Positions 14,660 through 63,297 of a DNA stretch of 64,000 nucleotides are shown piece by piece. The notes under the pieces are model-generated. The model ran no database searches. It had not been told where the DNA came from and saw only the letters and a list, made by a program, of their open reading frames with translations. Origin of the DNA: an archaeon (GTDB lineage: Archaea; Nanobdellota; Nanobdellia; Woesearchaeales; GW2011-AR9); NCBI GenBank assembly GCA_018696395.1, contig JABHQR010000012.1, positions 11,841 through 75,840 on the forward strand, written 5' to 3'. Within the stretch, counting starts at the first letter, position 1; each line of letters starts with the position of its first letter. A program made the position numbers and the translations under genes.

Positions 14660-15742
14660 TTATTTTTTTATTTTTTGAAATCTACCAATAGCTCTTTGAA
14701 TCTCTTCTTCAGCTGTTTTTGGTTTTACAGTTTTAGAATCTGTTTTATTTATGCTAGTTGCATTTTGTATTGCAATTGGGGTTTGTACTTTAGGTTCAGA
14801 TTTAACACTTTCCTTCTTCTCTTCAAATTTAACATTCCAAGTTTTATCTTTAATTTTACTAGCAATACTGTCTAAATCATAATCTGGTTGTTTTGGTTGC
14901 CAATTAATACTTTTCAAATTATCATCTTGTTTTCTTGGTAAAATATGAACACATAATTTTCCTTCTGGATTGTCATCAGATTCTCCTGATTTTAAGATTA
15001 TGTTAGTTCCATGAGCTCCAAGCCCTTCAAATACTGCTGTTGCGGCGAAAGAAGCAACATAAAATAAATGTGAAGCAGATTCAATATCTAATTTTTCAAA
15101 ATATTTTTCTTCTTCTTTACTATAAATTTCAATATGTCCTTCAGCAACACAATTTTCATCAATGACTGCTAATGTTTTTTCATCCTCATAAACAATAGTA
15201 CTGTTTTCTTTAATAGATTTTAAAAAATTTGGTATTTCACCAATTCCTTTATGCCAATTTGCTGGATTTCTACCAAAATGATTTTTCATCATTATTGGTA
15301 AATTGTTTGCTATCATGGATTTACTTTTTTCTGAAGTTTGATGTTTTTTCTTAAACAAAAAATTGAAGAAACCATCTCCTTTTTCTCTCGGTAAAAAATG
15401 TATCAAGAAATGGGGTGCTTGTTGACCTGCAACCCCACCATTAGCAACAAATATGTTCATTCCTGTTGTTACCATTGCTTTTTTGATACTAGTGGTAAGT
15501 TGGGCTGTAATACCAAAGAAATGTTTAAATTCGTTTGCTGGGATGTATGGCATTATTGGATAATGTTCTTTTGGTAAGAATATTGTATGGCCTTTTAAAA
15601 TTGGATTGATATCCAACATGGCCATTGTAACTTTATCTTCATAAACTTTTTTTGGAGGGATCTCTCCTTTAATAATTTTACAGAATACACATTGTTTCTT
15701 TTGCTCTTCCAACTGTGCTTTCATTTCTGGAGTGATATTCAT
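14660..15742 (-). CDS. tandem HINT-like (HIT family) domain protein with Lys-rich C-terminal tail
   Basis: N-terminal CVFCKIIKGEIPPKKVYEDKV...GHTIFLPKEH...IFVANGGVAGQQAPHFLIHFLPR is a classic HINT layout. A second, degenerate HIT-like repeat (AVIDENCVAEGHIEIY...GTNIILKSGES...KLCVHILPRK) follows. The first domain has HxLxH in place of the canonical HxHxH triad. Confidence 0.6.
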   Translation of the reverse strand: MNITPEMKAQLEEQKKQCVFCKIIKGEIPPKKVYEDKVTMAMLDINPILKGHTIFLPKEHYPIMPYIPANEFKHFFGITAQLTTSIKKAMVTTGMNIFVANGGVAGQQAPHFLIHFLPREKGDGFFNFLFKKKHQTSEKSKSMIANNLPIMMKNHFGRNPANWHKGIGEIPNFLKSIKENSTIVYEDEKTLAVIDENCVAEGHIEIYSKEEEKYFEKLDIESASHLFYVASFAATAVFEGLGAHGTNIILKSGESDDNPEGKLCVHILPRKQDDNLKSINWQPKQPDYDLDSIASKIKDKTWNVKFEEKKESVKSEPKVQTPIAIQNATSINKTDSKTVKPKTAEEEIQRAIGRFQKIKK

Positions 15743-20817: not shown

Positions 20818-21561
20818 ATGGTTAAAGATAAATCTGTTAAAAAAATATTAATCTCTGCGAAAGGCAAAAAGAAATATTATGTGACTCAACTCAATGAAGA
20901 TTTTATCACTACAGAAGGTGTTGTTAAGAGTTTAGATTTAAGTTCTGAAAAAGAATTTATTGAAACTGATAAAGGAAATAAATTCCATTTGATAAATCCT
21001 TCAATTATTGATCTGATGGAAAAATTGAATCGTGGTCCACAAATAATTCAACCAAAAGATATTGGCTTAATTATGTCAAAAACTGGCATTAACAAGAACT
21101 CTTTAGTTGTTGATGCTGGGGTTGGTTCTGGTACTTTATCTTTGGCATTAGCTAACATTTGTAAACAAGTTACTGCTTATGAAATTAATAATAAACATTT
21201 GAATATTGCACAGAAAAATAAAGAGTTATTTGGGGCAGAAAATCTTGAAATTAAAAAAGGTGATGTAGCTGAAGAAATGACTGAAACAAATCTTGATTTA
21301 ATAACTTTGGATTTACCGCACCCTTGGGAAGTTGTTCCAAAAGCAGAATTAGCATTAAAATTAGGGTCTTATCTTGTTGTATATTTACCTAACATTTTAC
21401 AAATGAAAAAGTTTGTTGAATCATTGAAAGGAAGTAAAATTAAACTTTTAGAAGTAATTGAACTTATTGAACGTAAATGGAAAGTTGAAGAGAGAATTGT
21501 TCGTCCAGAAACTGCAGAATTGTCTCACACTGCATTTATGGCATTTTGTAGAAAAATGTGA
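20818..21561 (+). CDS. trmI: tRNA (adenine57/58-N1)-methyltransferase TrmI (GCD14 family)
   Basis: SAM motif VVDAGVGSGTLSLALA and the family-specific LITLDLPHPWEVV. Confidence 0.75.
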   Translation: MVKDKSVKKILISAKGKKKYYVTQLNEDFITTEGVVKSLDLSSEKEFIETDKGNKFHLINPSIIDLMEKLNRGPQIIQPKDIGLIMSKTGINKNSLVVDAGVGSGTLSLALANICKQVTAYEINNKHLNIAQKNKELFGAENLEIKKGDVAEEMTETNLDLITLDLPHPWEVVPKAELALKLGSYLVVYLPNILQMKKFVESLKGSKIKLLEVIELIERKWKVEERIVRPETAELSHTAFMAFCRKM

Positions 21562-22074: not shown

Positions 22075-22165
22075 GCCTCAGTGGCTTAGCGGTTAGAGCA
22101 TGCGAGAATTCAATTCCATGAAGCTGTTAACCGCAGGGTCGTAGGTTCAATTCCTACCTGAGGCG
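22075..22165 (+). tRNA. tRNA-Asn (anticodon GTT) with an 18-nt intron inside the anticodon stem (~position 30/31; intron 22105..22122)
   Basis: Hand fold: acceptor GCCTCAG/CTGAGGC plus G73, D arm GCTT-AGCGGTTA-GAGC, T arm GTAGG-TTCAATT-CCTAC. The only splice that restores a 5-bp anticodon stem (TGCGG/CCGCA) and a canonical loop gives CTGTTAA. Confidence 0.6.
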
Positions 22166-22953
22166 CTTAGGGGGAATTCAATTCCCCTATCTTTTAATAT
22201 TTTTATTCTTTCATTAACATCTGTTCCAACTGGCAAACTGCCTGTTTCTTTCCATATCTCATAACGGGTTAAGGTATTGTAATTTGAAAATCCAATATCT
22301 TTCATCCATTGATTTAGTTTTTTCTTTCCATTAATTTCAACAATATAAGCAATTATTTTTGTTTTTTTTCTTTCCCTTTCTAATGTTGTTGAGTAAAAAT
22401 AAAAACCAAGTTCTTTTAATAATTCCTTAACTGATTCATGTAATGTTTTGCTGTATGTCCAGAAATTAATTACTGGTTTTCTACCTTGATTTTTGAAAAC
22501 TAAACTGAAATCTGTATCTGCTAATCCTCTCAAGAAACTTTGTTTTGTTATTTTATTGGAATTTTTAATTATATCTGGGACCTTAATCTTAATCTTTGGG
22601 CTAAATGGAATTTCACAACATTTATTTAAAAATAAAACAATTGCCTTTGATCTAAAAGAAATCATAACTGTTTTGTTACCCTTTCTAACATTAACCTCTT
22701 TATTAAATAATTGTTTAATTAATGATTTTAAGAATTCTTCATAGAATTTCCTTTCATTAACTTCATGGCCATTATAATCTACTCTATAATCTATCTTGTT
22801 TTTTCTTCTTTCAATTTTCATATAACCATCCCCTATATGAAAACCTAAAAAATAAGCTAATTCTGGTGTGATAATTTCGGGAACTTTAATTCCTAATCTA
22901 ATGTCATTTTTACTAAATTCTACATGTGATAAATCAAATTTCACACATTTCAT
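22147..22953 (-). CDS. free-standing double-motif LAGLIDADG homing endonuclease
   Basis: Motif 1 ELAYFLGFHIGDGYM and motif 2 FLRGLADTDFSL. 268 aa. Its last 19 nt, including the stop, overlap the tRNA-Asn T arm on the opposite strand. Confidence 0.75.
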   Translation of the reverse strand: MKCVKFDLSHVEFSKNDIRLGIKVPEIITPELAYFLGFHIGDGYMKIERRKNKIDYRVDYNGHEVNERKFYEEFLKSLIKQLFNKEVNVRKGNKTVMISFRSKAIVLFLNKCCEIPFSPKIKIKVPDIIKNSNKITKQSFLRGLADTDFSLVFKNQGRKPVINFWTYSKTLHESVKELLKELGFYFYSTTLERERKKTKIIAYIVEINGKKKLNQWMKDIGFSNYNTLTRYEIWKETGSLPVGTDVNERIKILKDRGIEFPLSASGRN

Positions 22954-25150: not shown

Positions 25151-25948
25151 ATGGCTGAAGAGATTTCTGAAGAACAAAGGAAACAGATGGAAGAAAAGTT
25201 GAAAAACATGTCTCCTGAAGAGATTGCAGAACTTCAGAAACAGCAATGTATTTTCTGCCAAATTATATCTGGCCAAATACCATCTAAAAAAGTTTATGAA
25301 GATAATGTGTGTATTGTGGTATTAGATATTAACCCTGCGTCATCTGGGCATTGTTTAATACTTCCTAACCAACATTATGCTATCATGCCACAAGTTCCAG
25401 AAACTGAACTAAACCATATGTTTAAAGTTTCTAAAGCAATGTCTCAAATTCTTTTGAAAAGTATGAGGGCAAAAGGAACAAATATTTTTGTAGCTAATGG
25501 CGCTGCTGCTGGTCAAAAAGCACCTCATTTTATGATACATTTAATCCCTCGTAAAGATGATGATGGTTTATTTAATTATGAAACAAAAATAATTGAATCT
25601 GAAATTAGGGAAAAGATTGGACAAGCTGTTAAAATGAAATTTAATCAGCTGATGGGGATCAAAGTTGAAACTCAAACTGAATTGCCTGAACATCAAGAAG
25701 AAGTTTCTGGGGATGAACCAGATAAAATTGAAAAGTTAGATGATTTGGCTGGTCCTTCTGAAAATCAAGAAGATGTTGATAATAAAGAATCTGATGATAA
25801 TGATGATGATTCAGATAGTGAAGATGAAGATTCAGAAGGATCTGATCAAGAAGAAAATGATTCTAAAGATGTGGGAGATGATGAACCTGAACCACTTAAA
25901 GATGATGTTGATGCAAGTTTAGATGATATTGCTAACTTGTTCAAATAA
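25151..25948 (+). CDS. HINT-like HIT-family protein with long acidic C-terminal tail
   Basis: CIFCQIISGQIPSKKVYEDNV...GHCLILPNQH...IFVANGAAAGQKAPHFMIHLIPR, then a tail of ~90 residues rich in D/E/S. Triad reads HxMxH. Confidence 0.7.
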   Translation: MAEEISEEQRKQMEEKLKNMSPEEIAELQKQQCIFCQIISGQIPSKKVYEDNVCIVVLDINPASSGHCLILPNQHYAIMPQVPETELNHMFKVSKAMSQILLKSMRAKGTNIFVANGAAAGQKAPHFMIHLIPRKDDDGLFNYETKIIESEIREKIGQAVKMKFNQLMGIKVETQTELPEHQEEVSGDEPDKIEKLDDLAGPSENQEDVDNKESDDNDDDSDSEDEDSEGSDQEENDSKDVGDDEPEPLKDDVDASLDDIANLFK

Positions 25949-25969: not shown

Positions 25970-26512
25970 ATGAATTGTGAATATTGTGAAATAATCTCTG
26001 GAAATCAAAAAGCTAACATTATTTATCAAGATGATGAAATATTAGCTTTTGTTAAAGAAGAAGTTATTTCTCCAGGTCAGATAACTGTGATCCCTATTGA
26101 ACATTTAACTATTCTTGAAATGGTTCCTGGAAAAATTTTAGACAAAATGTTTACTGTTGCTAACAAACTAAGTATGGCCATATTTGAAACTATGGGATGT
26201 CATGGGACAAACATTTTTGTTGAAAATGGTCTTGGTGGTGGTCAAACTGTACCTCACTTTTCATTACATGTCATTCCTAGGTATGAAAATGATAATTTGA
26301 AACTTAACTGGGTGCCTCAACAAGTTCTTCCTGAAGATTTGGAAAATGATTTCATTCAAATACAAATGAATGCTGAAGGGTTAACTATTTCTGATGAAAT
26401 TCCCTCTGAAGAAAGTGAAGATATCGTTGTTGATGAAGGTGACACTGAAGTTGTTCTGAAAAAGCAAGATGATGAAAATTATTTACTTAAGTCACTTAGA
26501 AGGCGGGCTTGA
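25970..26512 (+). CDS. HINT-like HIT-family protein
   Basis: CEYCEIISGNQKANIIYQDDEILAF...IPIEH...IFVENGLGGGQTVPHFSLHVIPR. Triad reads HxSxH. 21 nt after the preceding HINT gene. Confidence 0.65.
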   Translation: MNCEYCEIISGNQKANIIYQDDEILAFVKEEVISPGQITVIPIEHLTILEMVPGKILDKMFTVANKLSMAIFETMGCHGTNIFVENGLGGGQTVPHFSLHVIPRYENDNLKLNWVPQQVLPEDLENDFIQIQMNAEGLTISDEIPSEESEDIVVDEGDTEVVLKKQDDENYLLKSLRRRA

Positions 26513-44500: not shown

Positions 44501-46603
44501 TTGATGGGATGGAAAGAGTTATGGACATATTTAATAACAGATCCAAATAAAGTAAAATCTAAATCTTCTTGCAATAAGAAATCTAAACTATTATCTCTCA
44601 ACTTAACTAAAAAAACTTCTGAAAAAAAATTCAACTTATCGGATTCAACTTCAAAAAGGAAATTAGGAACTGGCGTTCTTTTATTTATATTAATTAATTC
44701 TATATTAGGTAGTTCGTTATTTTACTTGCCAAGTTTAGGTGTGAAAAGTTTTGGAGCGGCAAGTGTTATTTCTTGGTTACTTATTTTCATGGTTGCAGGT
44801 TTTATTATGTTATACATTAGTGAACTGTTAGTTCTTTTTCCATCATCAGGAGGAACTTATTTTTATTGTAAAAAAGCGTATGGGCGATTTATTTCTTTTA
44901 TGGCTGGTTGGATGATCTGGTTGGCAGGAAATATTGGGATGGCATTAAACATTGTAGCTGCAGCAGAATATTTTATTCCTGAAACTGGCAGTGGTGCATT
45001 TGCGTTACGTATCGCTTTTAGTTTAGTTTGGATTATAGCATTAAATTATATGGCTTTTAGGGGTATAGATGCAGGCGTTACTATGTTAGTAGCGTTTGGG
45101 ATATTTTCTATTGTAGTTGTCTCACTTTTGATAATTCCTTCTTTCATTAGTGTTCCTGCTTTACTTGAGGGAAATTTAGTTACTAATTTTGACATTAATA
45201 ATATAACTCCTTTCTTTAGACATTCTGGGGGTTTTGGATTATTGTCCCATTTACTTTTATCTTTACTAATGGTTTCAGAAGCATTTTTTGGGTTTGAAAC
45301 ATTAAGTTATTTATCAAATGAAGCTGAAGATAAAAAGAAATTGCCAAAAATTTTATTTTTATCAATGTTAATTTGTGGTTTAATAATGGGTTTGTATGTG
45401 CTAACTTCTGTGGCAACAGTAAATTATGGTGATTATGTTACTAATGCAAGGCCTTGGGCTGTGCAAGCATTAAATATTTTGGGAGAAACAGGTAAAAGTA
45501 TTATTGTGTTTGGAATGTATCTTACTATCATTGGTGCTGCTGCTGCTTGGCCGATTACTAGTTCTCGGTTAGTACAAGCAATGGCCAAAGATAAATTGTT
45601 TCTGAAACATTTTGCTGCAAAACATCCTAAACACAAATCCCCCTATAAAGCAGTATATTTTCAAACTTTTGCCATAATATTGTTCGCATGGTTAATATTT
45701 AGGGGTTATATGGTGAATTGGAGTGACCCTTACCGGACAATGCACTTAATTTATGTTGTAATAAGTTTAATCTCTTTATCGTTAATACTTTTTACTGTAC
45801 CAATATTACGTAAAAAGTTTGCTAATCTAAAACGAGATTTCAAAGCACCTTTACCTTTACTAGGTCCAATCTTAATAGTATCATTTTTTACATTTTTAAT
45901 CTTTAATTGGGTTTTTATAGAAGGTGCAGTTGCAAAATCAATTATCAATTTAGCATTATCTTTTGTGGTGTTAGGAATCCCTTTATACTTTTTAATAGAA
46001 ATGTTTTATGATCCAAAAGCTATTGTAAGAACTAATGAGTTTCTTTCTTACTTTGTATTGTTAACTGAGAAAATACATTTTCCTTTAAGTATTAGAAATA
46101 AGATTTTGAAAGATTTAGGTGATGTTAAGGGGAAAACTGTGTTAGATTATGGGTGTAGTATTGGTTCATTAACTAAACGTTTAGCAAGAAAGGTTGGTTC
46201 TAACGGGAGGGTTTATGCTACTGACATCTCTTTGCATAATGTTAAGATTACTGATCAAAGAACTAATGAAATCTCTCAAGTTACAGTTCATCATCACCCT
46301 AGTTTGGATAATTTTAGTTTAAAATTATTTCCTAAAGCAGACCTAGTTTTGTCTATTGGAATGATGTCTTATTTACAGAAGCCTCGAAAGATTTTAACTT
46401 CTTTATCAAAACAAGTTAAGAAAAATTCAGAGATTATTTTTGTTGATTATGATAAATTCTTTTATTTTATTCCTAATGTGACTTGGATTGAAGATGATAA
46501 ACAATTGGTTAAATTGTTTAAATTTGCTGGGTTCAAAGTTAAAATTACTAGAAAACAAGGTTTTTTATGGACTTATGTTATTGTTAAAGGGAAAAAGATT
46601 TAA
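44501..46603 (+). CDS. APC-superfamily permease fused to a C-terminal class-I SAM-dependent methyltransferase domain
   Basis: ~12 TM N-terminal region with APC-like GxG and proline patterns. C-terminal 200 aa has MTase motif I VLDYGCSIGSL, post-I acidic YATDIS and motif II DLVLSIGMM. 700 aa. Confidence 0.7.
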   Translation: MMGWKELWTYLITDPNKVKSKSSCNKKSKLLSLNLTKKTSEKKFNLSDSTSKRKLGTGVLLFILINSILGSSLFYLPSLGVKSFGAASVISWLLIFMVAGFIMLYISELLVLFPSSGGTYFYCKKAYGRFISFMAGWMIWLAGNIGMALNIVAAAEYFIPETGSGAFALRIAFSLVWIIALNYMAFRGIDAGVTMLVAFGIFSIVVVSLLIIPSFISVPALLEGNLVTNFDINNITPFFRHSGGFGLLSHLLLSLLMVSEAFFGFETLSYLSNEAEDKKKLPKILFLSMLICGLIMGLYVLTSVATVNYGDYVTNARPWAVQALNILGETGKSIIVFGMYLTIIGAAAAWPITSSRLVQAMAKDKLFLKHFAAKHPKHKSPYKAVYFQTFAIILFAWLIFRGYMVNWSDPYRTMHLIYVVISLISLSLILFTVPILRKKFANLKRDFKAPLPLLGPILIVSFFTFLIFNWVFIEGAVAKSIINLALSFVVLGIPLYFLIEMFYDPKAIVRTNEFLSYFVLLTEKIHFPLSIRNKILKDLGDVKGKTVLDYGCSIGSLTKRLARKVGSNGRVYATDISLHNVKITDQRTNEISQVTVHHHPSLDNFSLKLFPKADLVLSIGMMSYLQKPRKILTSLSKQVKKNSEIIFVDYDKFFYFIPNVTWIEDDKQLVKLFKFAGFKVKITRKQGFLWTYVIVKGKKI

Positions 46604-49236: not shown

Positions 49237-51126
49237 GTGATGGCTGAACTTAAGAAAGTACTTGGTTTTAAGACGATTTTACTTATTACAATTAACTCTA
49301 TTATGGGTACTGGGATATTTTTTCTTCCAGCGGTTGGTGCAGGTAAGTCTGGCCCAGCATCTTTAATTTCTTGGGCAATTTTATCAGTGGTTTCAATTTA
49401 TATTGCAATGTGTTTTGGAGAATTATCTTCAATGTTCCCAAAATCTGGTGGGATTTATGAATTCTGTAAACAAGCTTATGGTAGGTTTTTTTCATTCTTG
49501 ATTGGTTGGATGACAATCATTGCAGGAAATGTTACTATTGCTATGTTGGTGGTAGGTGCAATACAATATTTAATGCCAGTTGGTTCAATTTGGTTAAAGA
49601 TAGGTGCATCGTTAATATTTATATTCGTATTCAATTACATTGCATTTAAAGGGATGCAAACTTCTGCTGTTATGTTAATTGCTTTTTCAATTATAACTTT
49701 ATTTACAGTAATATCTTTAATTATACCTGGTTTGATTAAATTTAATGTGAGTAATTTTACTCCTTTTTTTGTTTTCCCGGTATCTTCCATCGCATTAACA
49801 ATTTTTTTAGTGGCAGAAACTTTTTTTGGTTGGGAAACTGCAACTTTCTTGGCTGAAGAGACTAAAGATGGCCAGAAAGTTATGCCTAAAGCTTTAATTT
49901 ATGGTACCATTATTATCGCAGTAATTTGTTTACTTTCAGTAATCTCTTCTATGAGTGCTATTAATTGGCAAATATTTGGTTCTTCTAGTGCACCTTTAGC
50001 GGATTTAGCGGTGGAACATTTTGGACCACAATCTTCCGGTGTTTACACCATTTTAGTTTATCTTGCAATAATTGGTTCTGTTGCGGGTTGGATTGTTTCA
50101 GCTCCAAGATTATTATTGGCAATGGCTGAAGATAAATTATTTCCTGCCCAATTTGCAAAGATTCATCCTAAGAACGGTACGCCGTATTTAGCAATAATAT
50201 TTCAAACAGTTTTGTCTACAATTTTAGTAATTGTTGGTGCTGGTTCTTATACCACTTTATTGGAACTTCTTTTACCAATAGTTCTTATCATGTATTCTTT
50301 TGTATTAATTAGTGTAGTTGTACTAAGATATAAAAAACCAAATCTTAAAAGATATTACACTGCGCCTTTTGGTAAAGTGGGCCCTATACTTGTTACATTA
50401 TTCATTTTTTTCTTAATAGGGATGTGGTTACATGAATCTCATGGTGCATTTGATCTGTTGAGTATTGCAGTATCATTATTGATTTTGGGGATTCCAGTAT
50501 ATTTCTTGATAGAAATGTATTATGATTCAGAAGCAATTAGGAAAGTTAATGAAAAATTACCTTATCTATTATTATTTTCAGAAAATTTCTTATTTCCTTT
50601 AGATGTTAGAAGAAAAATATTTCTTATGGTTGGAAATTTGAAAGGTAAAAAAGTATTGGAATTTGGTTGTGGTGTTGGAACATTAACAAGAAGGTTAGCA
50701 AACAAAGTTTTACCTGGTGGGAAAATTTATGCATTTGATTTTGCTAAACATAATGTTAACCTTGTTTCTAAAAACATGAAAAAAAATAATCATAATCATG
50801 TTTCTGTTTTTCATCATGAATATTTAGACCATTTTAAAACTAAGAATAAATTTCCTAAATGTGACATTTTAATATCTACTGGTACATTTAGTTATGTTCA
50901 AAACCCTGAAAAAGTAGTTAAACATTTGAGTAATAACTTGAGAAAAGGTGCTCGAATTGTTATAATGGACTATGACAATTTCTTTCATTTAATGCCTAAT
51001 GTAGAATGGATCTCTGATCATAAAAGATTAAATCAAATGTTTACCCAGGCCGGATTTAAAATTGAAATAATTAGAAAAAGAAGTTTATTATGGACACACA
51101 TATTTATTGTTGGTGAAAAAAAATAA
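49237..51126 (+). CDS. APC-superfamily permease fused to a C-terminal class-I SAM-dependent methyltransferase domain (paralog of 44501..46603)
   Basis: Same architecture. MTase motif I VLEFGCGVGTL, post-I YAFDFA. 629 aa. SD AAGGAG upstream. Confidence 0.7.
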   Translation: MMAELKKVLGFKTILLITINSIMGTGIFFLPAVGAGKSGPASLISWAILSVVSIYIAMCFGELSSMFPKSGGIYEFCKQAYGRFFSFLIGWMTIIAGNVTIAMLVVGAIQYLMPVGSIWLKIGASLIFIFVFNYIAFKGMQTSAVMLIAFSIITLFTVISLIIPGLIKFNVSNFTPFFVFPVSSIALTIFLVAETFFGWETATFLAEETKDGQKVMPKALIYGTIIIAVICLLSVISSMSAINWQIFGSSSAPLADLAVEHFGPQSSGVYTILVYLAIIGSVAGWIVSAPRLLLAMAEDKLFPAQFAKIHPKNGTPYLAIIFQTVLSTILVIVGAGSYTTLLELLLPIVLIMYSFVLISVVVLRYKKPNLKRYYTAPFGKVGPILVTLFIFFLIGMWLHESHGAFDLLSIAVSLLILGIPVYFLIEMYYDSEAIRKVNEKLPYLLLFSENFLFPLDVRRKIFLMVGNLKGKKVLEFGCGVGTLTRRLANKVLPGGKIYAFDFAKHNVNLVSKNMKKNNHNHVSVFHHEYLDHFKTKNKFPKCDILISTGTFSYVQNPEKVVKHLSNNLRKGARIVIMDYDNFFHLMPNVEWISDHKRLNQMFTQAGFKIEIIRKRSLLWTHIFIVGEKK

Positions 51127-52249: not shown

Positions 52250-52478
52250 TTTTAACTAACCTGGCCCTTTTTCTTATGAAAAATTTTTAACGTTTTTTTA
52301 ATAATCTGTGGTTTATTTATAAAGTAGGACTACTTTTAAGGTTTATATAGTTTTGTTATAATCCTTGAGTAAGTAAAATTAACTAATTTTAAATCAAATT
52401 TACATTTACCTTATAATTTCTGATTTAAATTCTTATTGAGAAAATCTTTTAAATGGAAGCACGATTGTTAAATTAATT

Positions 52479-52626
52479 GGTCCTGTAGCTTAGCCTGGTG
52501 GAGCGCTGCTCTTATATGGGTACGTTTCAATCATGAATGTACCAGAAGTTAAGCAGAGGTCCCGGGTTCAAATTTTTTTTACAGAAAAACATTTTTGTGA
52601 AAATTATGAAAGTCCCGGCAGGACCA
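52479..52626 (+). tRNA. tRNA-Ile (anticodon TAT) with two introns: canonical 37/38 (~52517..52550, 34 nt) and T-loop ~59/60 (~52574..52613, 40 nt)
   Basis: Hand fold: acceptor GGTCCTG...CAGGACC plus A, D arm GCTT/GAGC, anticodon stem CTGCT/AGCAG with loop CTTATA|A. The T arm CCGGG-TTCAAAT is interrupted before its 3' strand CCCGG. The first intron contains a GGTAC/GTACC hairpin. Confidence 0.55.
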
Positions 52627-52634
52627 TTTTTTTC
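52627..52634 (+). terminator. oligo-T tract directly after tRNA-Ile (archaeal-type termination signal)
   Basis: TTTTTTT immediately 3' of the discriminator base. Confidence 0.35.
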
Positions 52635-63128: not shown

Positions 63129-63239
63129 TGCTCAGATCGCATAATTTGGTATTGCGCTGGACTGCTATATCTTTCATAAGCAATCTTTGCAGCCATCCAG
63201 TTTCCTTTTGGATATCTGGGTTCAAATCCCAGTCTGAGC
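63129..63239 (+). tRNA. tRNA-Ser (anticodon GCT), class II, with a 27-nt canonical 37/38 intron (~63166..63192)
   Basis: Hand fold: acceptor GCTCAGA/TCTGAGC plus G, anticodon stem CTGGA/TCCAG with loop CTGCTA|A, 15-nt variable arm, T arm CTGGG-TTCAAAT-CCCAG. Confidence 0.6.
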
Positions 63240-63297
63240 GTATTACCTTTTTTTCTTTACCCAAAACTTAATATACATCGATTCTCTTCTTTTAGTT

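Follow-up and report, generated by a model that had tools for sequence, protein, structure and literature searches.

What is the stretch between positions 52479 and 52626 (+ strand), which the standard detectors leave uncalled: a working tRNA gene, and if so, which codon does it serve and how is it freed of its inserts? The initial annotation had read it by hand as a tRNA-Ile(UAU) interrupted by two introns, one of them in the T loop. The window, by which we mean the whole 64-kb stretch of DNA that was analyzed, is 29% GC, and its Pfam matches include core genes of archaea: an exosome Rrp41/42-like RNase PH pair, aIF2-alpha, TFB and GatD, together with a family-B DNA polymerase, a thermosome and a TrmI-like methyltransferase. 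For the thermosome, the best named relatives come from MAGs of Nanoarchaeota and Woesearchaeota (about 70-72% identity), and the mature Ile(UAU) tRNA is closest, among the matches listed, to that of Woesearchaeota archaeon UBA10194 (93%). These similarities place the host, whose DNA is AT-rich, among the DPANN archaea, in the Woesearchaeota / GTDB-Nanoarchaeota type. In 40 window ORFs AUA makes up 348 of 14,872 codons (23.4 per 1000). It accounts for 26% of the Ile codons and is roughly as frequent as AUG, a usage for which a dedicated AUA reader is needed.

The gene is 148 nt long and yields a product of 74 nt once the two introns are removed. Exon 1 (52479..52516, +; tRNA positions 1-37) runs GGTCCTG TA GCTT AGCCTGGTG GAGC G CTGCT CTTATA and comprises the acceptor 5' strand, the D arm, the 5' strand of the anticodon stem and the loop residues C32 U33 U34 A35 U36 A37; it was assigned by ARAGORN on the spliced sequence and by a partial Rfam tRNA match. 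It is followed by the 34-nt intron 1, TGGGTACGTTTCAATCATGAATGTACCAGAAGTT, at the canonical position 37/38 (52517..52550, +), delimited by ARAGORN after removal of intron 2 and by a constrained fold. Exon 2 (52551..52572, +; positions 38-59), taken from ARAGORN and from a blind scan for bulge-helix-bulge (BHB) motifs, runs A AGCAG AGGTC CCGGG TTCAAA and supplies A38, the 3' strand of the anticodon stem, the variable loop AGGUC, the 5' strand of the T stem and the T loop from U54 to A59. [quoted passage not shown] Exon 3 (52613..52626, +; positions 60-73), read from the sequence and by ARAGORN, runs T CCCGG CAGGACC A and adds U60, the 3' strands of the T and acceptor stems and the discriminator A73; TTTTTTT (T7) follows directly, and CCA is not encoded.

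In the spliced 74-mer ARAGORN finds an acceptor stem of 7 bp, a D stem of 4 bp with one G.U pair and anticodon and T stems of 5 bp each, all of them without mismatch, together with the T loop UUCAAAU and the discriminator A73; the 74-nt cloverleaf that had been reconstructed by hand was thus recovered with its full set of stems. Splicing leaves all 21 base pairs of the stems in place, along with U33 and A37, so that the product has the RF00005-type stems, the U33, the T loop of the form UUCRANY and the discriminator of a tRNA cloverleaf. Its anticodon loop, C32 U33 UAU A37 A38 (CTTATA|A in the DNA, CUUAUAA in the RNA), is that of an AUA decoder, and ARAGORN names the spliced sequence Ile(tat), in agreement with the identity first proposed. 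The exons reach a GC content of ~58%, against 29% for the genome. All three follow one another in tRNA order on one continuous stretch of 148 nt, an arrangement which is not that of a split or permuted tRNA.

The raw gene received no ARAGORN call, either by default or under several other intron and threshold settings, and no match at the Rfam gathering threshold; default ARAGORN and the Rfam gathering scan called three other tRNAs in the window. With a permissive local scan, the Rfam tRNA model gave a sub-threshold match of 18 bits at 52479-52570, covering the 5' three-quarters of the gene. The gathering score of RF00005 is 29 bits, and a lower score is expected of an unspliced gene given its two large inserts; the remaining weak Rfam matches (snoRNA, sroB and others, all with E > 2) were dismissed as noise. 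Deletion of the 40-nt T-loop insert suffices for ARAGORN to call tRNA-Ile(tat) and to locate by itself the anticodon-loop intron at 52517-52550, with the 34 nt and the 37/38 position previously suggested for it.

We also carried out a blind SPLITS-like scan, in which all position pairs on both strands were considered for a 4-bp helix with 3-nt bulges and an outer helix of at least 2 bp. The window contains 59,105 such 3-4-3 BHB candidates, and ARAGORN was run on the in silico spliced form of every one. Junction-spanning tRNA calls were confined to the four true tRNA loci of the window. At the Ile locus the scan gave intron 2 as exactly 52573-52612, which makes precise the insert of roughly 40 nt at about 59/60 in the initial annotation, and ARAGORN supplied the 34-nt intron 1; four block-shuffled windows, used as a control, produced one spurious junction-spanning locus in total. 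Folding alone is uninformative for this precursor, since the unconstrained RNA fold (ViennaRNA; MFE -54.4 kcal/mol) leaves the short, A/U-rich central helices of the BHBs unformed and pairs the D arm wrongly, with intron 1. The cloverleaf with both central helices as constraints reaches -49.4 kcal/mol and the cloverleaf-only optimum -50.8.

An archaeal BHB intron is marked by two 3-nt bulges on opposite strands with a 4-bp helix between them, and it is cut after the second nucleotide of each bulge. In intron 2 the outer helix is the T stem itself and the central helix, U54U55C56A57:UGAA, consists of 4 Watson-Crick pairs; the 3' bulge AG|U60 lies beside the T stem, only one U-A pair closes the 5' bulge A58A59|U, and beyond it come a small internal loop and an A/U-rich hairpin of 12 bp. 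Intron 1, in the constrained fold and the register common to its family, has the 3' bulge UU|A38 and the pairs C32-G, U33-A and U34-A, with an A35.G mismatch in the fourth place; its 5' site UA|U lies inside an enlarged loop, the first inner position being a G.A mismatch, so that the inner helix beside the 5' bulge has 0 bp, and a longer hairpin (GGUACGUU/AAUGUACC) follows beyond. It is by applying this register to intron 2 that position 59/60 is defined. The bulges and the central helix are therefore present in both introns, in relaxed form in intron 1 (3 pairs plus A.G). The outer helix h is provided by the 5-bp anticodon and T stems, and the strict hBHBh' motif, with h and h' of at least 2 bp each, is absent from both. 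Both introns thus have relaxed, hBH-like motifs, in which the 3' site keeps to the strict form and the 5' site is loose; a BHB-type motif can form at each junction, so that the grounds on which the initial annotation would have given up its reading do not apply. Position 59/60 is a documented archaeal tRNA intron site (PMC3239211), and both introns of this gene combine a known insertion site with conservation among orthologues. A C/D-box guide RNA inside either intron was considered and rejected on reading the sequence, neither a TGATGA-type C box nor a CTGA D box being present in intron 1 or 2.

A search pattern that joined a D arm of archaeal type to an anticodon arm with CTTATA at its end matched at least 120 species genomes, almost all of them DPANN by label (Woese-, Pace-, Nano-, Micr-, Iain-, Aenigmat- and Undinarchaeota), some labels being evidently wrong. 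By these matches, tRNA-Ile(UAU) is the rule across DPANN, not the exception. The initial annotation had taken the UAU anticodon and the multiple introns as hallmarks of a few archaeal lineages; the host is a DPANN archaeon and not one of the Thermoproteales or Korarchaeota, and the UAU type is common within DPANN. Among the matches listed, a parser that required intact stems and demanded no BHB feature resolved 110 genes from other species, 17 of them with no intron, 76 with the 37/38 intron alone and 17 with the 37/38 intron plus a T-loop insert; the 37/38 intron is hence present in 93 of the 110 (85%). The inserts of those 17 genes, 15-97 nt long, always divide the T loop as TTCAAA|...|T. 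Moreover, UGAA stands at the pairing position, as in the present gene, in 13 of the 17 orthologous 59/60 introns, and three of the four pairs are made in the remaining 4 (matches listed), the chance expectation being ~2% per gene for a feature that was not demanded by the parser. Of the loci that the parser left aside, most are ordinary genes in which a single stem pair is mismatched; besides these there are L046, which has a 138-nt 37/38 intron, two loci that stop at contig ends, and L082, for which no acceptor 3' strand was found. In L024 the T-loop insert exceeds 140 nt and reaches the contig end.

Judging from this survey, Ile(UAU) genes that carry both introns turn up repeatedly in DPANN, the matches listed adding 17 species to the present one. 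A73, the discriminator looked for in isoleucine identity, is found in 111 of 111 family members and the UUCAAAU T loop in 97 of 111. The 59/60 carriers tend to cluster, since the nearest neighbor by mature sequence is also a carrier in 13 of 18 cases against a background of 16% (matches listed); the 37/38 intron looks ancestral, and the 59/60 intron looks inherited within sub-clades. Intron 1 of the window is homologous to that of its relatives (TGGGTACGTTTCAA...AGAAGTT). Across the family the 37/38 intron has a consensus of 5' TGRC... and 3' ...CTAAGNN, with G at intron position 2 in 88 of 94 members (matches listed). UAAG stands before the last two intron bases (positions -6..-3) in 52 of the 94, and the GAAG variant seen in the present gene in 10 of the 94, again among the matches listed. 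UAAG is the complement of C32-U33-U34-A35, and this family-wide complementarity of positions -6..-3 confirms the register of the intron, hence the anticodon.

Metagenomes were scanned for the anticodon stem and variable loop of this gene, which gave 9 loci, the window's own contig not being among them. The nearest metagenomic clade is formed by L124, L127, L128 and L129, which share the acceptor stem GGCCCTG, and all four carry both introns. Their intron 1 is homologous, with the GAAG variant common to L128 and L129; their 59/60 introns are of unrelated sequence, with lengths of 14, 74, 20 and 80 nt. Exons, splice geometry and promoter motif have thus been kept while the sequence of intron 2 was turned over, which points to a functional spliced gene under purifying selection. 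Another of the metagenomic loci, L130 (about 1732-1900, - strand), has a D-loop insert of ~20 nt in addition to the 37/38 intron.

Some side observations were made on this family. Among loci L002-L121, ARAGORN gave a wrong anticodon for ~26 of the parsed Ile(UAU) genes, with the intron misplaced, 18 of them being called Ser(tga), and it missed the genes with 59/60 introns. A tRNA-Glu(UUC) gene lies at most 200 nt from tRNA-Ile(UAU) in 20 loci (matches listed), a linkage absent from the window. Many MAGs titled 'uncultured Methanosarcinales archaeon' (binchicken; L013, L018, L019, L030, L035, L043 and others) carry a DPANN-type tRNA-Ile(UAU), and so do the bacteria-titled MAGs L017, L042, L073 and L097, which suggests mislabelled or contaminated bins.

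Upstream of the gene, a promoter-like element was read at 52438..52454 (+), composed of the A-rich, BRE-like gagaaaatc and a TATA-like TTTTAAAT; it ends 25 nt before the mature 5' end and would serve as the promoter. In the four closest relatives GAAAAnCTTTTAAAg occupies the matching place, ending about 24 nt before the gene, and within the window comparable elements, TTTAAATA / TTTTATAAATA, precede the tRNA genes for Ser and Asn at a similar distance. At the other end, the 148-nt precursor is followed, as first described, by the T7 tract (52627..52633, +), placed directly after the discriminator. Relatives L128, L129 and L124 show T6-T8 directly 3' of the gene, and L127 has short T runs only. 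An oligo-dT tract of at least T5 terminates archaeal RNA polymerase in vitro, T5 being the minimum (PMC2253867), and with the sequence and the relatives in mind the T7 tract is likely an oligo-T transcription terminator.

Such runs also lie inside the gene, as intron 2 starts with T8 (52573-52580) and contains a further T5 at 52592-52596. T-runs of T6 or longer were seen in 2 of 112 introns of the Ile(UAU) family (matches listed), and the closest relatives have none in their intron 2. Premature termination at the T8 and T5 could consequently lower the yield of the gene. Inside the window ORFs there are 12 sense-strand T7/T8 runs, about what base composition alone would give, and such tracts must therefore often be read through in this genome. 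Since the 59/60 introns of the relatives are ordinary ones without T-runs, the T8 looks like AT drift, not design, and we treat it in this way, with a possible cost in yield; an archaeal termination signal at the start of an intron is nonetheless an oddity.

Introns are present in three of the four tRNA genes of the 64-kb window. The tRNA-Asn(GUU) gene (22075-22166, +) has an 18-nt non-canonical intron at 30/31 (22105-22122); default ARAGORN labels it Glu(UUC) and Rfam generic tRNA only, and both intron-aware ARAGORN and the blind BHB scan give Asn(gtt). Splicing at 30/31 restores a perfect anticodon stem, UGCGG/CCGCA, from a clean 3-4-3 BHB with the central helix C25A26U27G28:CAUG. A non-canonical intron with a perfect BHB in this tRNA means that this genome must splice non-canonical introns. 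The tRNA-Ser(GCU) gene (63130-63240, +) has a 27-nt intron at the canonical 37/38 site (63168-63194) with a perfect central helix, CUGC:GCAG.

Taken together, these data make it very probable that the locus is a functional, cis-spliced, AUA-decoding tRNA-Ile(UAU) gene of a DPANN (Woesearchaeota-like) archaeon. A single precursor of ~150 nt would be transcribed from the upstream BRE/TATA-like element and end at the T7 tract; EndA would recognize the two BHB-type motifs, cutting the one on the anticodon stem at 37/38 and the one on the T stem at 59/60, the introns would be excised and the three exons joined by an RtcB-type ligase. CCA, which is not encoded, would be added, and the 74-nt product would be charged with isoleucine and read AUA. 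What the sequences show directly is the cloverleaf, the geometry of the BHBs, the upkeep of both introns and their sites in relatives, and the motifs for promoter and terminator; we infer transcription, EndA cleavage, ligation, charging and the use of this tRNA in place of the TiaS/agmatidine system. Among the ORFs of at least 150 aa in the 64-kb window, no Pfam match to EndA, RtcB or TiaS was obtained, hence the type of endonuclease and the absence of the agmatidine pathway are assumptions taken from the literature.

The same locus could be viewed as a decaying, non-functional tRNA pseudogene, disabled by its T-loop insert, with AUA read by another tRNA elsewhere. The silence of the standard detectors, the departure of both BHBs from the strict motif and an internal T8 that could end transcription (PMC2253867) would fit such a view. 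Nevertheless, a gene in decay would hardly keep all 21 stem pairs together with U33, A37, UUCAAAU and A73, nor hold its insert exactly where a BHB requires it, with UGAA supplied for U54-A57; moreover, the nearest relatives have kept both the two-intron layout and the promoter motif despite the complete turnover of the intron 2 sequence, and we consider a pseudogene very improbable. Slightly less probable still is that transcription mostly stops at the T8, leaving a truncated RNA of the 5' three-quarters, so that the gene would be one of low output or its 14-nt 3' piece would be supplied separately, as in a split tRNA. The T8 opens intron 2 directly and a T5, the minimal terminator in vitro (PMC2253867), lies further in; the presumed terminator of the gene is itself only T7, and intron 2 is an outlier in its family for T-run length. 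On the other side, the exons lie together in their natural order, a normal hairpin intron linking them, and by eye there is no TATA-like element usably placed upstream of exon 3, since GAAAAACATTTTTGTG would start transcription inside that exon; read-through must be frequent in view of the 12 T7/T8 runs in ORFs, and the relatives have ordinary 59/60 introns free of T-runs. With contiguous exons and one upstream promoter-like element, none being suitably placed in intron 2, the split-tRNA or internal-promoter reading of the T8 was rejected.

A chance cloverleaf, obtained from AT-rich intergenic DNA by two arbitrary deletions, has to be weighed too, as two free deletions amount to many degrees of freedom and one of the four shuffled windows did yield a spurious junction-spanning tRNA call. 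The deletion boundaries, however, were set by the BHB geometry and not chosen, the GC content of the exons is about twice that of the genome, and orthologues occur in more than 100 species. Because the two-intron architecture recurs in other species chance is excluded; we give this reading a negligible probability and regard it as effectively refuted by the comparative sequence data.

A functional, spliced tRNA-Ile(UAU) agrees with what has been described for related archaea. The ARMAN genomes, also DPANN, have tRNA-Ile(UAU) and lack tRNA-Ile(CAU) and TiaS (Fujishima et al. 2011, PMC3239211). ARMAN-2 resembles the present case in two respects: its Ile(UAU), for which a role in place of the TiaS/agmatidine system has been proposed, has a 37/38 intron, and the 59/60 site is in use (PMC3239211). 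Its two introns are in different tRNAs, with a 25-nt one at 37/38 of Ile(UAU), of the strict hBHBh' form, and a 13-nt one at 59/60 of pre-tRNA-Cys (PMC3239211), whereas the present gene, from a Woesearchaeota-like host, has the two together, at greater lengths (34 and 40 nt) and with a relaxed BHB at 37/38. The ARMAN-2 59/60 intron has a relaxed hBH motif that is cleaved in vitro by the epsilon2 EndA, and it is this motif that the relaxed hBH-like motifs of our gene resemble (PMC3239211). Nanoarchaeum equitans and Korarchaeum cryptofilum, 2 of 167 genomes surveyed, have been described as rare exceptions to tRNA-Ile2(CAU) plus agmatidine as the rule in archaea (PMC6000648); they have the same archaeal Ile tRNA with the UAU anticodon, the Korarchaeum gene having one intron (PMC6000648), but here a second intron lies in the T loop, and our survey puts the species with the UAU type, most of them DPANN, at 120 or more. 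A literature search on TiaS in DPANN found nothing relevant.

Regarding the enzyme, a broad-specificity EndA has been assigned to TACK and Nanoarchaeum in the (alpha-beta)2 form, to ARMAN in the epsilon2 form and to other DPANN as an L3-loop alpha4 (PMC5829648); a broad-specificity splicing endonuclease, which the initial annotation had deduced from the two introns, is consistent with this literature (PMC3239211, PMC5829648). Multi-intron archaeal tRNAs share 1-3 BHB introns per gene, recurrent sites that include 59/60, relaxed variants and a tendency to be missed by default predictors (PMC5829648). Our gene does not differ qualitatively from them; it is another instance, from a lineage whose genes of this kind were predicted to be under-detected (PMC5829648). 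The L3-loop EndAs of DPANN correlate with more tRNA gene disruption, and the gaps in the tRNA sets predicted for DPANN have been taken as a sign of disrupted genes that escaped detection (Kaneta et al. 2018, PMC5829648), of which the Ile(UAU) gene of the window is a case. Already known, then, are the 37/38 intron of DPANN Ile(UAU), introns at 59/60 of other tRNAs and endonucleases of broad specificity, and what we describe is no departure in kind.

Likenesses extend to eukaryotes. [quoted passage not shown] In yeast Ile(UAU) Psi34 and Psi36 are intron-dependent, and the anticodon-loop intron pairs with the anticodon, as here (PMC9602550); Pus1 forms these residues solely on the intron-containing precursor of eukaryotic tRNA-Ile(UAU). 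We raise, as a rather unlikely idea, that the DPANN Ile(UAU) 37/38 intron may be retained as it is needed, e.g. for an intron-dependent anticodon modification that would keep U34 off AUG, and that the 59/60 intron with its T8 could gate a T-loop modification or throttle the output. The 37/38 intron occurs in ~85% of the Ile(UAU) genes among the matches listed versus ~24% of neighboring tRNAs, a rough comparison made with different detectors; it is homologous across DPANN phyla and pairs with C32-A35, which includes the wobble base U34. C. merolae and yeast are eukaryotes, and the link between intron and modification is demonstrated there (PMC9602550) and a hypothesis for DPANN. Were it true, organisms without TiaS would have a eukaryote-like answer to the AUA/AUG problem.

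The value of the finding is mainly for annotation, and current understanding is not overturned by it. The only visible AUA decoder of the window escapes the default tRNA finders and its Asn neighbor is mis-assigned as Glu; undetected disrupted tRNAs of this kind make DPANN genomes seem short of essential tRNAs, distorting estimates of completeness and codon capacity.

Other features of the window deserve mention. A LAGLIDADG_3 (homing-endonuclease-like) ORF at 22147-22953 (-) overlaps with its 3' end the 3' end of tRNA-Asn by ~20 nt on the opposite strand. Two paralogous ORFs, at 44501-46603 (+) and 49237-51126 (+), have an unusual architecture in which an amino-acid permease is joined to a C-terminal SAM-methyltransferase. 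Three HIT-domain (DcpS-like) ORFs lie within 12 kb, at 14660-15742 (-), 25151-25948 (+) and 25970-26512 (+), one of them with two HIT stretches. Finally, the ORF at 20818-21561 (+) is a GCD14/TrmI-like methyltransferase. The GCD14/TrmI family makes m1A58 in the T loop, and A58, its target, adjoins the 59/60 splice site of the Ile tRNA.
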